DNA of 37,980 nt. It comes from Myxococcales bacterium (GTDB lineage: Bacteria > Myxococcota_A > UBA9042 > JAGQJP01). Every line of letters begins with the position of its first letter. Positions within the stretch are counted from its first letter, which is position 1. This document shows, in pieces, positions 42-4,504 of this stretch. The translations under genes were made by a program, and so were the position numbers. The stretch covers positions 1 to 37,980 of the forward strand of contig JAGQJP010000468.1 in assembly GCA_020430585.1 (NCBI GenBank), read 5' to 3'. The notes beneath the pieces are model-generated. The model saw only the letters and a list, made by a program, of their open reading frames with translations. It did not search any database and was not told the origin of the DNA.

Positions 42-833
42 TCAGTTCGACTCCGCCATCTCGAAATCGACGAGGAGCTCTCGGGCGATCAAGCGTGGCA
101 AGCTCGCCAGCGTGTCGACGGCGGTGTCGGGATCCAAGGGCTCGCTGATCTGCGCCATCGTGCGGTGTCGCCCGATGCCCTGCATCAATCGCCACTCGTC
201 CGCATTCAGGCGGTCGATGTGCAGCGCGTCGTTGCGCCAGACGACCATTCGAACGGGCTCGCCCTCGGTCGCCGCGAGCCTGGGAACGGGGCGTTGCGCG
301 AGAAAGGCGGCGAAGATCGTGTCGACGGAATAGGGCGAGAGCAACAGCCCGACCGACGAGCGAAAGCTGAAGCGCAGCCGGCCGCGGCGCTCGAAGTCGA
401 TGTGGAGCAGCTCGTCGAGGGTCAGCGGATCGTCTTCGGCGGCGTTCGCGGCGCGGTGCCAGAGCCATTCGAGGCGCGCCAGGTCCGGGAGATAAGGCAT
501 CGACTCGATGCTCGGAAGCATCTCGAGGTGGTCGGCGAAGCGGTCTCCGTAGTCGTTGCGCTCGGCGGACACCGCTGGAGTGCCGAAGGCGTATCGGCGC
601 GCTGCTGACGAGAAGTACTCCGCCTCGACGAGGGCCCGACAGGCGGGGTAGACACGTTCGAGCGCGTCGGTCAACGTCGCGATCACCGCGCGTCGACAGA
701 GCCGCAGCCGCTCGTGTGGCGCTGGGCGGTCGGTGCTCTCGACGAAGGCGCAGAGCGCGTGGTCGAGGCCGAGCTTCTGCCGCGAGTCGAGTAGCGCCTC
801 GGCGACGCTCAGCTGCAGCTCACGCAAGTTCAC
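42..833 (-). CDS. DUF2063-family protein (BufC-like partner of DUF692 proteins)
   Basis: C-terminal 263 aa of ORF 42..1109. The GTG at 833 has GGAGG 6 nt upstream and gives MNLRELQLS.., a typical DUF2063 N-terminus. Family-like stretches include ERVYPACRALVE and PYLPDLARLEWLWH. It overlaps the DUF692 stop by 14 nt. The extra about 90 N-terminal aa in the ORF track are Arg/Ser-rich read-through inside the neighbouring gene. An alternative GTG start lies at 848. Confidence 0.75.
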   Translation of the reverse strand: MNLRELQLSVAEALLDSRQKLGLDHALCAFVESTDRPAPHERLRLCRRAVIATLTDALERVYPACRALVEAEYFSSAARRYAFGTPAVSAERNDYGDRFADHLEMLPSIESMPYLPDLARLEWLWHRAANAAEDDPLTLDELLHIDFERRGRLRFSFRSSVGLLLSPYSVDTIFAAFLAQRPVPRLAATEGEPVRMVVWRNDALHIDRLNADEWRLMQGIGRHRTMAQISEPLDPDTAVDTLASLPRLIARELLVDFEMAESN

Positions 834-1638
834 CGCGCGCCTCCACACGTGCCCCGAGTCGCTCGATGCGGCTTCGCAGGCGATCGAGACCTCCGCGTCG
901 CCGATCCCAATCGAGCGCCGTCGGCTGCGGTCCAAATCGGCCGATCGCCTCGTCGAAGAGCTCCTCGACGAGCGCGTCGAGCTCGCCCTGATCGGGCGGG
1001 GGCCAGAGTCCATCACGGGTCGCGTAGCGGCTGATCCGTAGCTGCGAGACCCGCTCGAGGGGCAGCGCCGCGAGATATTCGCCCGGGTCGAAGCCGAGGC
1101 TCCGGGCATTCAGGGCCAGCGCCGACAGGTCGAGGGCGAGGTAGCACTCGGCCTCGTCGAGGACGGCGCAGACGAACTGGCACTCGCTCAGGGTCGACTG
1201 GGCGAAACGAAAGAAGATCGGCGGGTTTCGCACCAACAGCGGTCGCTCGAAGCGATACTGCACCTCGCGGATTCGCGCGGCGACGTGCCCAACGGCTTCG
1301 TCGGTGTAGGGCAGCGGTAGGGAGTGGTGCAGATAGCGATGGTTGACCGAGCGCCAACCGAGGTCGTCGACGAGCGTCTCAGGGTCGACCCGCTCGACGA
1401 GCGCGACGAGGCGTTCGATGAAGGAGTCGTTGAGTGGATCGGTCGAACCGAGGGAGAGGCCATCGCAAAAAAAGGCGAGCGGGTAGCGCTCGCGCAGCTC
1501 GAGAAGCGCACGAAAGTTGGCGCCGCCGAGGCCGAGGTGTGGGCCGGCTTCTACGGCGAACCAAGGAAGCGAAGGCTGCTCGTCGAGGATCAGGGGGATC
1601 TGTTCGGGCTCGAGGCCGGCTCCGACGCCGTAGAGCAT
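820..1638 (-). CDS. DUF692 / MbnB-BufB-like TIM-barrel protein, apparently ligand-depleted
   Basis: 272-aa ORF with DUF692 landmarks (GVG..., LSLGS, SLPLPYTDEA, LGFDP, PTALDWD). Its ATG lies 1 nt after the stop of the upstream gene. The positions I remember as Fe ligands read F, D, R, A and R instead of H, H, E, N and H (see finding). Confidence 0.8.
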   Translation of the reverse strand: MLYGVGAGLEPEQIPLILDEQPSLPWFAVEAGPHLGLGGANFRALLELRERYPLAFFCDGLSLGSTDPLNDSFIERLVALVERVDPETLVDDLGWRSVNHRYLHHSLPLPYTDEAVGHVAARIREVQYRFERPLLVRNPPIFFRFAQSTLSECQFVCAVLDEAECYLALDLSALALNARSLGFDPGEYLAALPLERVSQLRISRYATRDGLWPPPDQGELDALVEELFDEAIGRFGPQPTALDWDRRRGGLDRLRSRIERLGARVEARGELA

Positions 1639-1639
1639 C

Positions 1640-2923
1640 TCAGAACGAGAACTTCGGCTTGAGCTTGGCCTCTTTGTCGATCGTCTTCTGCAGCGAGTCG
1701 AAGTAGACGCGCCCGGCGATATTGTCGATCGCCAGCAATCGAGAGTGGTACGTCTTCAGCAGCACCTTGTCGTCGTGGGAGAGCAGCTCGTGGGCGCGCA
1801 GCAGGACGAGCTCTTTGGCGGGGACCTTCTCGATGAAGCGGCTGCCGAGCGGCTTGACTTTGACGAGCAGCTTCTCGACTTCGACCTCGATCGGCTCACC
1901 CTTTTTGTCCTTGATGATCTTGCCCTTTTCGTCGCGCTTCTTCTCTTTGACCTTCTCTTTGAGCACGTTTGAGCGGATCTCGACCACTTTTCCGACAGCC
2001 GGACCCTTGTCGTTTGCCTTGAACTGCACCGCGTAGCCGATCTTCTTCACCGTATTCTCGCGCAGCGCCTGGTAGGACTTCGAGTTGTCGGAGACGAGCT
2101 TGGCATAGAACAGCATCGTGTTCGCCGCATAGATGAAGGAGTAGACCTCGGCGACGAGCTTGCTGTTCCAGACGCCGTTCCCCTTGACGATCACCCCCGG
2201 GACGAGGGGCTTGTAGCCTGCGAACTCTTTGCAAGCCTTGAGGAACTTGGGATGGGGCACCCAGCTGCGGCCGAGGACTTTGTTGACGCGGGCGAGCTCG
2301 ATCTTCGAGGCCTCTTTGAACTCGCCGACGACGGTGATGAAGCGCTGGAAGCCCTCGGTCTTGACGGAACGCTGGATCTGTTTCGCCTGGAAGATTCGCT
2401 TGTTGTACTCATCGCGGATGCTGAAGCCCTTGCCGAGGTAGAAGGCGAAGGCCATCAAACCAAATGCAGCGGCGGCCGCCACCCCGATGAAGACCATCGT
2501 CTTGACGGGATTCTTCTCTTTGTACGGCACCGAGCCCTTGATGCTGTCGTCCTCCATCGGCTCGAGCCCGATCGGCGGAAGCGGCACCTGGGGCTTGTAC
2601 ATTTGCTGCTGCATCTGCAGCGCACTGGGCTGGGCGACGACCGTGTCGACAGCCTGGAAGGGATTTTCCGGTTCCGGCTCAGGCTTCGGGGGCTCCTTGG
2701 GTTTGCTAATATCTTCTTGAATTTCCTGAAGAAATTTGTCCGATACGCTGCGCCCCTGCGGTTTCGGTGCGAGCCCCAATTTGGCACGGAGGTCCTGGAT
2801 GTTCGGCGCCACACCCGGCTTTCGGTCTTTGATCGACGGCACTTTCGGCGCCGCGCTCGGCTTCTCTGTTGGAGCAGCGGGTGCTGGCGGGGTGCTGGCA
2901 CCTTGCTTCTGGTCGGTCGTCAA
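1640..2923 (-). CDS. bitopic membrane protein: Pro-rich N-terminus, one TM helix, Lys-rich C-terminal domain; function unknown
   Basis: 427-aa ORF with a TTG start at 2923 and AGGAGG 7 nt upstream. It has a single hydrophobic segment (MVFIGVAAAAAFGLMAFAFYL) and high GC3. I recognise no family. Only one Cys is present. Confidence 0.8.
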   Translation of the reverse strand: MTTDQKQGASTPPAPAAPTEKPSAAPKVPSIKDRKPGVAPNIQDLRAKLGLAPKPQGRSVSDKFLQEIQEDISKPKEPPKPEPEPENPFQAVDTVVAQPSALQMQQQMYKPQVPLPPIGLEPMEDDSIKGSVPYKEKNPVKTMVFIGVAAAAAFGLMAFAFYLGKGFSIRDEYNKRIFQAKQIQRSVKTEGFQRFITVVGEFKEASKIELARVNKVLGRSWVPHPKFLKACKEFAGYKPLVPGVIVKGNGVWNSKLVAEVYSFIYAANTMLFYAKLVSDNSKSYQALRENTVKKIGYAVQFKANDKGPAVGKVVEIRSNVLKEKVKEKKRDEKGKIIKDKKGEPIEVEVEKLLVKVKPLGSRFIEKVPAKELVLLRAHELLSHDDKVLLKTYHSRLLAIDNIAGRVYFDSLQKTIDKEAKLKPKFSF

Positions 2924-2963
2924 CCGCGCCTCCTTCGAATGTATGGAAAACTCACGTCGAATC

Positions 2964-2993
2964 GATATATCTCTGCCGCTTACGTGCCTTCAA
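2964..2993 (-). promoter_or_regulatory. candidate sigma70-type promoter for the 1640..2923 operon (TTGAAG-18-TATATC on the minus strand)
   Basis: Read by eye in the locally AT-richer divergent intergenic region, about 45 nt upstream of the TTG start. Confidence 0.3.
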
Positions 2994-3064
2994 GGGTACA
3001 TAACAATTGGCGATCAAGTCAAGCAACGCGACGCGTCGGGGTCTCAATCTGGCGAGGCGCGCGC

Positions 3065-3094
3065 TTGACAATTTGCCGATGGATATTCGAGAAT
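3065..3094 (+). promoter_or_regulatory. candidate sigma70-type promoter for the BMC-P operon (TTGACA-18-GAGAAT)
   Basis: Perfect -35 hexamer at 3065..3070 and a 4/6 -10 at 3089..3094. An AGGAG RBS sits 8 nt before the ATG at 3125. Confidence 0.3.
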
Positions 3095-3124
3095 AGCGAC
3101 GACTCGATCACCAGGAGAACGCCG

Positions 3125-3493
3125 ATGTATTTGGGCCGCGTTATCGGCTCTGTCGTTTGCTCGCAGAAAGTCAGCGGCCTCGAGGGAGTGAAGCTTCTCC
3201 TCGTCGAGAGGCTCGACCACACGGGAGCGCGTGTAGGGCGACCCCACGTCGCCGCAGACGTCGTGCAGGCGGGCCCGGGTGATTTCGTGCACCTCGTGTC
3301 GAGTCGCGAGGCGGCGTTGGCGATGGAGGAGACCTTCGTCCCAGTCGACGCGGCGATCGTCGGTATCGTCGATCAGCTCGACGTGGTGGGGCCCGCTGCC
3401 GGTGACGCCGCCGCGGCGTCTGGGTCGGCCAGCGCCGGCCGTTCCGCTCCCAAAGCGGCAAAGGCGCGTCCCACGAAGAAGGGGCGCACGTGA
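3125..3493 (+). CDS. BMC vertex protein (BMC-P; EutN/CcmL/PduN family) with a C-terminal Ala/Lys/Arg-rich extension
   Basis: An internal ATG of ORF 2252..3493 gives MYLGRVIGSVVCSQK...VAADVVQAGPGD...VDAAIVGIVDQL, a classic EutN/CcmL signature. About 35 extra residues follow the fold. Confidence 0.9.
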   Translation: MYLGRVIGSVVCSQKVSGLEGVKLLLVERLDHTGARVGRPHVAADVVQAGPGDFVHLVSSREAALAMEETFVPVDAAIVGIVDQLDVVGPAAGDAAAASGSASAGRSAPKAAKARPTKKGRT

Positions 3494-3765
3494 TCGTCGC
3501 ACGCGTCATCGGGACGGTGGTCTCGACCGTCAAACATCCGACCTACCACGGGCGCAAGCTGATGGTCTGCCAACAGATCGACGAAGACCAGCGCGACGTC
3601 GGCACGTCGTTTCTCGCCGTCGACAACGTTCAGGCTGGCGTCGGAGACACGGTCCTCGTGCTGCGCGAGGGCAATGGAATTCGCCAGCTCCTCGGCCAGG
3701 CCGTGCTGCCGATCCGCGCGCTGATCGTCGGGATCGTCGACGAGGTGCACGTTGACCGCGGCTGA
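3490..3765 (+). CDS. BMC vertex protein (BMC-P; EutN/CcmL/PduN family), second paralog
   Basis: MIVARVIGTVVSTVKH...LAVDNVQAGVGDTVLV...ALIVGIVDEV. The GTG start overlaps the upstream stop (GTGA). Confidence 0.9.
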   Translation: MIVARVIGTVVSTVKHPTYHGRKLMVCQQIDEDQRDVGTSFLAVDNVQAGVGDTVLVLREGNGIRQLLGQAVLPIRALIVGIVDEVHVDRG

Positions 3766-4504
3766 TCGCAAGAAACTGCTGCTGCACTATACCCACCGCG
3801 TGGCCCGTAATGGCTGGGTCGCGAACCACGATGGCAACCTCTCGCTGCGCCTAGACGGCGATCTGCTGTTGTCGACCCCGACGGCGATGGCCAAAGAGGA
3901 CGTGCGCAGCGATGACCTGCTCGTGATCGACGGGCAGGGCGCGGTCGTCAGTGGGAAGCGGCGCGTCTTCTCCGAGATCAATCTGCACCTGGCGGCGTAC
4001 GGCGCTCGCTCCGACGTCAACGCGGTGGTGCATGCCCATCCGCCGCGGGCGACGGCGCTCTCCGTCGCTGGCGTGACGATCGAGAAGCCGATCATCGCCG
4101 AAGCGGTGGTCTCGATCGGCGATCGGATTCCCCTCGTGCCGTACGCCATGCCAGGCACGCCCGAGTCGGCGCGGCTCGTCGAAGAGCATCTGCAGCTCTC
4201 GAGCGTGCTGATCTTGCAGAATCACGGGGTGTTGACGGTCGGGGCCGATCTCGAGCAAGCGTACCTGCGGATGGAGCTCGTCGAGCACCTGGCGACGATC
4301 TACCTCCACGCGCTATCGGCGGGCCGCGTGAACCCGATCCCCGCGACAGACGTCGACGAGCTGCTGCAACGCCATCGCAAGGCGGGTCTCGCAGCGCCGC
4401 TCGCCGGGCTGCAAGAAGCGGCCGAGCGCGCCTCACCCGCAGCCGATGGCGAGCTGATCGACCTCGTAACGCGGGAAGTGATGCGCGTGCTCGCCGAAAA
4501 GTAG
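3752..4504 (+). CDS. class II aldolase/adducin-family protein with a C-terminal encapsulation-peptide-like helix
   Basis: Motifs HDGNLSLR, VVHAHPP and LQNHGVLTVG (metal-binding His pattern of class II aldolases). The TTG start at 3752 overlaps the BMC-P stop by 14 nt, so the start is uncertain. Confidence 0.85.
   Translation: MTAADRKKLLLHYTHRVARNGWVANHDGNLSLRLDGDLLLSTPTAMAKEDVRSDDLLVIDGQGAVVSGKRRVFSEINLHLAAYGARSDVNAVVHAHPPRATALSVAGVTIEKPIIAEAVVSIGDRIPLVPYAMPGTPESARLVEEHLQLSSVLILQNHGVLTVGADLEQAYLRMELVEHLATIYLHALSAGRVNPIPATDVDELLQRHRKAGLAAPLAGLQEAAERASPAADGELIDLVTREVMRVLAEK
4448..4501 (+). other. putative BMC encapsulation peptide (amphipathic helix GELIDLVTREVMRVLAEK) after an Ala/Pro/Gly-rich linker
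   Basis: This is the terminal 18 aa of the aldolase, beyond the end of the catalytic fold. It follows a low-complexity linker (LAAPLAGLQEAAERASPAAD) and has alternating hydrophobic and charged residues. Confidence 0.5.

Follow-up and report, generated by a model that had tools for sequence, protein, structure and literature searches.

The DNA analysed here (the window) is a whole contig of 37,980 bp from a metagenome-assembled genome labelled "Myxococcales bacterium" at NCBI. Its left end carries three minus-strand open reading frames (ORFs), which code for a membrane protein, a protein of the DUF692 family and a DUF2063 protein (Table 1). This report concerns the DUF692/DUF2063 pair, the first member of which has kept the fold of the MNIO oxidases and has had almost all of its iron ligands replaced. 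The membrane-protein and DUF692 genes meet at a TGA-G-ATG junction with a 1-nt gap, and the DUF692 and DUF2063 genes overlap by 14 nt; a sequence-only reading of this DNA had reported three tightly packed genes with the same gap and overlap, and the ORFs and junctions are as it described them. In all three genes the GC content at third codon positions is 0.79-0.85 and matches the remainder of the contig, and therefore none of them looks recently imported.

Table 1. Coordinates of the features discussed. Identity (amino acid) and omega (dN/dS by NG86, with bootstrap 95% confidence interval) come from a single pairwise comparison of the window with the related contig L001, at a dS of ~0.8-1.1.
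Feature	Contig	Position	Strand	Remarks	Identity to L001	Omega (95% interval)
DUF2063 gene (BufC/HvfC-like)	window	42..833	-	263 aa, GTG start	75%	0.22 (0.15-0.30)
DUF692/MNIO-fold gene (pseudo-BufB)	window	820..1638	-	272 aa, ATG start, iron-ligand set gone	55%	0.37 (0.26-0.51)
Terminator-like hairpin	window	1466..1493	-	7-bp GC stem and T7 run, within the DUF692 ORF		
Membrane-protein gene	window	1640..2923	-	427 aa, TTG start, first gene of the transcription unit	82%	0.15 (0.11-0.21)
Shine-Dalgarno AAGGAGG	window	2929..2935	-	5 nt upstream of the membrane-gene TTG start		
Promoter-like TTGACT-N18-TACCCT	window	2993..3022	-	ahead of the three-gene unit; consensus resemblance only		
Promoter-like TTGACA-N18-GAGAAT	window	3065..3094	+	towards the EutN genes		
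First EutN/CcmL (BMC-P vertex) gene	window	3125..3493	+	PF03319, E 2.9e-26; divergent	75%	
Second EutN/CcmL (BMC-P vertex) gene	window	3490..3765	+	PF03319, E 1.4e-26; divergent	96%	0.04 (0.00-0.11)
Class II aldolase gene	window	3752..4504	+	PF00596, E 3e-46; after the EutN genes	87%	0.09 (0.04-0.17)
Membrane-protein gene	L001	1137..2426				
Membrane-protein gene	L002	10001..11395				

The DUF692 protein, annotated by NCBI simply as "DUF692 family protein", matched PF05114 (MbnB_TglH_ChrH) with an E-value of 3.4e-51 and 174.5 bits (cut-off 25) over positions 1-257 of the 263 in the profile. Amongst the NCBIfam models the best was MNIO_BufB (NF050167), at 179.7 bits and thus under its equivalog cut-off of 310, and the score against HvfB (NF003818), 127.3 bits, was likewise under the cut-off of 360. 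The AlphaFold2 model of the protein had a pLDDT of 91.3 and a pTM of 0.89, and Foldseek matched it to the H. somnus DUF692 structure 3BWW (E 2.8e-19, TM 0.77/0.82), to TglH (8hi7, TM 0.79) and to MbnB (7dz9, TM 0.74/0.77). As modelled, the protein is an intact TIM barrel of the MNIO fold without the MNIO cofactor site.

To our knowledge, the characterised MNIOs (MbnB, TglH, ChrH, ApyH, HvfB, BufB) all depend on a conserved site of two or three iron ions. In the crystal structure of MbnBC, Fe1 is held by His54, His90 and the bridging Glu133, Fe2 by Glu133, Asp163, His192 and Glu239, and Fe3 by Asn166, Asp208 and His210, and single replacements of His54, His90, Glu133, Asp163, His192 or Glu239 reduce both iron content and activity (PMC9060507). 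The iron ligands are conserved in the characterised members of the family, all of them in HvfB (PMC11252979). We fixed the register of the corresponding positions in three ways i.e., by phmmer against 3BWW, by a 12-sequence MAFFT alignment and by an 83-sequence MAFFT alignment holding 81 canonical homologues together with both ligand-less proteins (the window protein and its closest relative, P0002). In the phmmer alignment, residues 37-204 of the window protein pair with 3BWW (E 7.9e-21), and its F, D, R, S/A and R stand opposite the H, H, E, N/N and H of HGLSLSLG, SDHL, VEN, LDVNN and HIAG. All three alignments agree on this register, and the flanking GLSLGS, LPLPYT, N of VRN and LD match exactly.

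The ligand columns are 99-100% conserved in the 81 canonical homologues. In the window protein, F57, D92, R137, D170, A173, R201, P214, D216 and D243 correspond to MbnB H54, H90, E133, D163, N166, H192, D208, H210 and E239, so that eight of the nine ligand positions are replaced and D170, the equivalent of Asp163, is the sole survivor. The same columns of P0002 read A, A, R, D, A and R, then no His, and T, i.e., seven or eight of nine are replaced. Further family-invariant positions in the area of the pocket are changed as well (R10, H13, E28, E32, N33, G58, V59, S90, N172, N180 and G204), and the structural landmarks are kept (GLSLGS, LPLPYTDEA, Q127, R132, N138, E152, F155, C165 and FGPQPT). 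Of the nine ligand columns, one is retained in both ligand-less proteins; of the 67 other conserved columns, 34 are (Fisher p = 0.03). An apparent charge swap is seen in both of them: Arg10, present in 94% of the family, has become Glu, and the bridging Glu (MbnB Glu133) has become Arg137.

Judged by its sequence, the DUF692 protein would be unable to perform MNIO oxidative chemistry, because its barrel lacks a multinuclear iron site. The sequence-only reading had set the ligand register by eye and had concluded that the iron ligands were replaced and the structural landmarks kept; the alignments bear out both points, and the structure comparison supports a true DUF692/MNIO fold. Stand-alone bufferin precursor genes, as well as MNIO clusters with no identified precursor, do exist (PMC12452194), and the protein could on these grounds be taken for an ordinary, active bufferin maturase with its precursor elsewhere and a ligand loss that is an artefact of alignment. 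That explanation is effectively refuted by the identical register of three independent alignments with exact flanking motifs, and by a BufB score so far under its cut-off. No report of a ligand-less or pseudo-enzyme MNIO was found in the literature searched.

The terminator-like hairpin within the DUF692 ORF, rare for a genome of 65% GC, coincides with the codons for Ala-Phe-Phe-Cys, which stand in place of the ligand equivalent to His54. Read as an intrinsic terminator (1493..1466) it is probably incidental: it is not kept in L001 and its fold z-score is -0.5.

The search for homologues of the barrel covered 5.8 billion clustered proteins and yielded one close relative, P0002 (55% identity), all others being at most 40% identical and canonical. 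P0002 is encoded on the 7.2-kb contig L001, where two EutN genes stand divergent to a 429-aa membrane-protein gene that is followed by the DUF692 and DUF2063 genes. The 1-nt gap and the 14-nt overlap are both kept, the L001 DUF2063 gene is called from the codon equivalent to the window GTG start, and a convergent ABC/MlaE gene comes after it. Both DUF692 proteins are 272 aa long, with in-frame gaps only, and they have the derived states E10, Q13, C58, R137, S172, A173 and R201 in common, amongst them the changes from Glu to Arg and from His to Arg. Since ligand loss and derived residues are shared, inactivation predates the split of the two lineages. The pair was thus carried by only two lineages of uncultivated Myxococcota in the proteins searched, and DNA-pattern scans for R-P-L-L-V-R-N-x4-F-R-F in genome and metagenome contigs gave chance matches only. 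The mean identity of the ligand-less clade to canonical members is 33-37%, compared with 52% among canonical members; the clade forms a long branch with accelerated evolution.

We compared the genes of the window and L001 pairwise (Table 1). The barrel is the fastest-evolving gene yet clearly constrained; purifying selection acts on it in relaxed form and on the DUF2063 protein fairly strictly. In a neutral simulation at 0.45 substitutions per site, with frameshifts ignored, the ORF stayed free of in-frame stops in ~0.7% of trials. These data bear on whether the pair is a slowly decaying relic, in which case it would be the leftover of a bufferin operon, have no function, ride along on the transcript of the membrane-protein gene and in the end be lost, perhaps already in the lineage of a further contig, L002, which carries the membrane-protein gene without the pair. 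The destroyed catalytic site and the absent precursor and doxX would fit such a relic, as would the extreme rarity of the clade and the rate of the DUF692 gene, which exceeds that of its neighbours (55% identity versus 75-96%; omega 0.37 versus 0.04-0.22). However, the loss of the ligands is older than a divergence of dS ~1, yet the ORFs are intact and of equal length with the same gap and overlap, the upper bound of omega (0.51) is well under 1, the chance of neutral survival is small even with frameshifts uncounted, and the DUF2063 protein is 75% identical with its family motif kept. We therefore regard decay as an improbable explanation, though one that deserves serious weight. Given a fold that is kept, ligands that are gone, ORFs that are intact in two lineages and an omega below 1, the view that the DUF692 protein is a retained pseudo-enzyme rather than a plain pseudogene, as the sequence-only reading had suggested, is well supported, with the qualification that a single pairwise comparison stands behind omega.

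A preserved fold under selection could also belong to a re-purposed catalyst, i.e., a barrel with a new active site, iron-independent or differently metallated, that still modifies a substrate. The replacements shared with P0002 are non-random and line the former pocket (E137R, H201R, R10E, H13Q and G58C), and four former ligand positions of the window protein are acidic (D92, D170, D216 and D243). P0002, however, has A92 and T243, so that D170 alone is common to the two and no alternative set of residues is conserved; approximately half of the family-conserved non-ligand columns are changed too, the locus offers no candidate substrate gene, and the literature searched holds no precedent. A new catalytic role is accordingly very unlikely in our estimate.

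The DUF2063 partner looks intact from its sequence. It matched PF09836 with 51.2 bits (cut-off 27.2) and the NCBIfam model RiPP_RRE_HvfC with 32.8 bits (under the equivalog cut-off of 142), where RiPP stands for ribosomally synthesised and post-translationally modified peptide and RRE for RiPP recognition element, and it retains the family motif PDLARLEW together with other invariant positions, in line with the earlier view that the partner had been retained. No relatives of the DUF2063 protein were found amongst PDB sequences. The nearest canonical barrels (P0006 and P0013) and the nearest DUF2063 relative (P0127) all lie in bufA1-bufB-bufC-doxX operons, and hence the pair is a descendant of a bufferin-type maturase module. 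In Caulobacter, formation of the bufferin thiooxazole needs BufB and BufC together, and these two suffice for it, and the C-terminal domain of BufC is RRE-like (PMC11626156); in the methanobactin system, the leader peptide is bound by MbnC (PMC8888699).

The other components of a bufferin operon were not found at the locus. Searches by tblastn of the window, L001 and L002 with three BufA1 sequences gave nothing better than E 0.15, and those with two sequences of DoxX (BufD, which is frequent but non-essential in bufferin biosynthetic gene clusters, BGCs) detected no DoxX. There is no ORF in the 200 bp upstream of the membrane-protein gene, and in L001 the distance from the DUF2063 stop codon to the convergent ABC gene is just 62 nt. 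The sequence-only reading was thus right that the locus holds no Cys-rich precursor, and that the slot upstream of the pair is instead filled by a Pro/Lys-rich bitopic protein of 427 aa with one Cys.

Compared with BufB/BufC of the bufferin BGCs (Caulobacter vibrioides buf1ABCD, PMC11626156), the window pair has the same order, an MNIO gene and then a DUF2063 gene with overlapping stop and start, keeps the TIM-barrel fold and the DUF2063 motif, and has MNIO_BufB as its top NCBIfam model. It differs in lacking BufA and DoxX, in the replacement of eight of nine iron ligands, in scores under the BufB and HvfC equivalog cut-offs and in its long branch; moreover, bufferin BGCs have a small Cys-rich precursor gene of the DUF2282/BufA1, Buf2 or EGKCG type, with a Sec signal, ahead of the MNIO gene, whereas the window pair is preceded by the gene for the one-Cys membrane protein. 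With the MbnB/MbnC holoenzyme (7DZ9, 7FC0 and 7TCR; PMC9060507, PMC8888699) it shares the fold (TM 0.66-0.77) and a two-subunit logic of barrel and leader-binding partner, but the window barrel keeps only the Asp163 equivalent, its partner is of the DUF2063 rather than the MbnC type, and no MbnA-like gene is present. The HvfB/HvfC oxazolin system of Haemophilus (PMC11252979) is close in that 3BWW, from H. somnus, is the top sequence and structure match of the barrel and in that the DUF2063 protein matches RiPP_RRE_HvfC weakly; unlike the window barrel, HvfB keeps all iron ligands, and the window locus has no EGKCG-type precursor. Finally, in the adjamnio-II/III MNIO clusters (PMC12452194) the gene before the MNIO also codes for a mid-size protein that is an unlikely RiPP precursor. 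There, however, the preceding genes are predicted to code for enzymes (peptidyl-tRNA hydrolase-like, HExxH) and the MNIOs have no reported loss of ligands, whereas in the window an orphan membrane protein precedes a ligand-less MNIO.

This membrane protein comprises a disordered, Pro-rich N-terminal tail (residues 1-141, 18.4% Pro), a hydrophobic segment (143-165) and a basic, Lys-rich C-terminal domain (pI 9.9, net charge +24); Lys makes up 13.6% of the whole protein, and C231 is its only Cys. The charges flanking the membrane segment are ambiguous as to topology. No family was found for it in Pfam, NCBIfam or PADLOC, and PHROGs gave weak, sub-threshold matches only. An assignment to motB was dropped (the Pfam match was under the cut-off), and searches of PDB sequences, of a PDB profile and with Foldseek returned no significant match, the best being a chromo-barrel-like match to the beta insert at E 0.04; the AlphaFold2 model was weak (pLDDT 53.5). 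A word-indexed search found the L001 orthologue only (82% identity), and an exhaustive HMMER search of 1.84 billion representatives added one more member, P0123 (39% identity). The family thus has three members in 1.84e9 representatives, each encoded divergent to an EutN-EutN-class II aldolase array, a satellite-like locus of the bacterial microcompartment (BMC). Scans of genome and metagenome contigs revealed no further relatives.

P0123 lies on L002, a 357-kb contig of Myxococcota (PWKZ01), in exactly the same slot. The gene order there is a sigma-54 regulator, xseA, aldolase, EutN, EutN, the divergent membrane gene and a convergent ABC/MlaE gene; the last two are 4 nt apart with no DUF692 or DUF2063 gene between them, and tblastn detected no remnants of the pair in L002. 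L003 likewise has an orthologue of the membrane protein in this slot without the pair. Because the L002 orthologue occupies the slot in this way, the pair is not an obligate partner of the membrane-protein gene, which is the older resident of the slot, and the pair was either gained or lost in particular lineages. The synteny of three genes that the sequence-only reading had put forward therefore recurs in the sole close relative, L001, and breaks down in L002, and its proposal of a new membrane partner for the pair is weakly supported. Downstream of the slot, L001 (4077..7071) and L002 (11400..14239) carry a fused ABC-ATPase/MlaE permease gene and a gene for a protein of 411-419 aa, whose products are 54% and 40% identical, respectively, between the two contigs; the latter protein has no Pfam family, and the window ends before this region.

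In the window, L001 and L002 the membrane proteins have C231 and a conserved tail motif (residues 40-74) in common, and their genes share the TTG start and a strong Shine-Dalgarno sequence; AGGAGGCGCGG(G)TTG is invariant in these three loci, in which both hexamers of TTGACT-N17/18-TACCCT are conserved too. In an obligate three-component system, the dead MNIO/DUF2063 complex would be a dedicated cytoplasmic partner of the membrane protein, for example by binding its N-terminal tail in the manner of a leader. Several observations are in keeping with this: the three genes are tightly coupled for translation in both carriers and share one conserved promoter-like element with no conserved internal terminator, the tail has hardly changed between the window and L001 although its codons carry synonymous substitutions, and DUF2063 partners bind peptides (PMC8888699, PMC11626156). 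Yet the L002 orthologue, with the same motif at 40-74, sits in the slot without the pair, and neither the ambiguous topology nor the net charge of the C-terminal domain favours such an arrangement, which we consider rather unlikely. The looser form of this idea, in which the iron-less barrel and the RRE-bearing DUF2063 protein bind the disordered cytoplasmic tail of the membrane protein, or some other client, as a mimic of a leader peptide and so regulate or chaperone it, is to our minds similarly doubtful.

The divergent neighbourhood consists of the two EutN/CcmL genes and the aldolase gene, with xseA and a sigma-54 response regulator gene beyond them, and the EutN-EutN-aldolase arrangement recurs in L001 and L002. 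The divergent arrangement against BMC vertex genes noted earlier is accordingly real; this adjacency is a matter of the membrane-protein gene and of the general synteny of housekeeping genes, and nothing ties it to the pair. The intergenic region (2924..3124) is ~80% conserved with L001, and the promoter-like element that faces the EutN genes is kept in all three loci. The motif GGCACG-N-GC, which lies upstream of the membrane gene, was considered as a sigma-54 promoter in view of the nearby sigma-54 activator and dropped since it is not conserved in L002. The first EutN protein has an Ala/Lys/Gly-rich C-terminal extension of ~38 residues past the EutN domain, and it is the poor conservation of this extension that accounts for its lower identity to L001 relative to the second EutN protein.

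A second assembly of the same organism, the 1.6-kb contig L006 (ENA k141_541128), is 99.86% identical to positions 387..1804 of the window and differs by two single-nucleotide polymorphisms, both synonymous. The final 217 nt of L006 (1419..1635) match nothing in the window and shorten the DUF2063 ORF to 211 aa; they most likely come from short reads assembled into a chimera and not from a real variant, and L006 was therefore dropped as an extension of the locus past window position 1.

The explanation that we favour, with a confidence only modestly above even, is that the pair derives from a bufferin maturase module, is confined to these lineages and non-catalytic, and most likely acts by binding a peptide or protein. 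A module of BufB, the MNIO oxidase, and BufC, its DUF2063 partner for peptide recognition, would have lost the bufA precursor and doxX, and the TIM-barrel subunit would have lost its multinuclear iron site before the two carrier lineages diverged, after which purifying selection would have maintained both proteins as intact ORFs with translational coupling. The pair may still form a BufB/BufC-like heterodimer that works as a non-catalytic binding module, in which peptides would be recognised by the DUF2063 subunit, the dead barrel would serve as a scaffold, and Arg137 and Arg201 would fill the former metal pocket beside Asp170. It would be co-transcribed behind an older, orphan membrane-protein gene that does not need it.

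Several points weigh against this explanation. It draws on two independent lineages only, and on an omega from one pairwise comparison with dS near saturation; the value of 0.37 could be a mix of constraint at first and relaxation later. The window copy lacks the family-invariant E28 and E32 that P0002 keeps, and this additional loss could be a signal of ongoing decay. The filling of the pocket by Arg and Asp, although plausible, is argued from homology, and a precursor or client may be encoded elsewhere in these incomplete genomes, the search having covered the 38-kb window, L001 and L002.

For genome-mining pipelines, any PF05114 match with a DUF2063 partner gene counts as a biosynthetic cluster for a RiPP. 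The present locus indicates that such a match can be a ligand-less, precursor-less derivative that is still retained by selection, and hence calls for caution in automated annotation, although the practical impact is limited by the small size of the clade, i.e., two uncultivated Myxococcota lineages. The pair also represents a natural experiment on what the scaffold of an MNIO and its partner does without the chemistry. Were the pair to act on a mimic of a leader peptide, it would be the first "pseudo-MNIO" and the first case of RiPP leader recognition re-used for the regulation of a protein.

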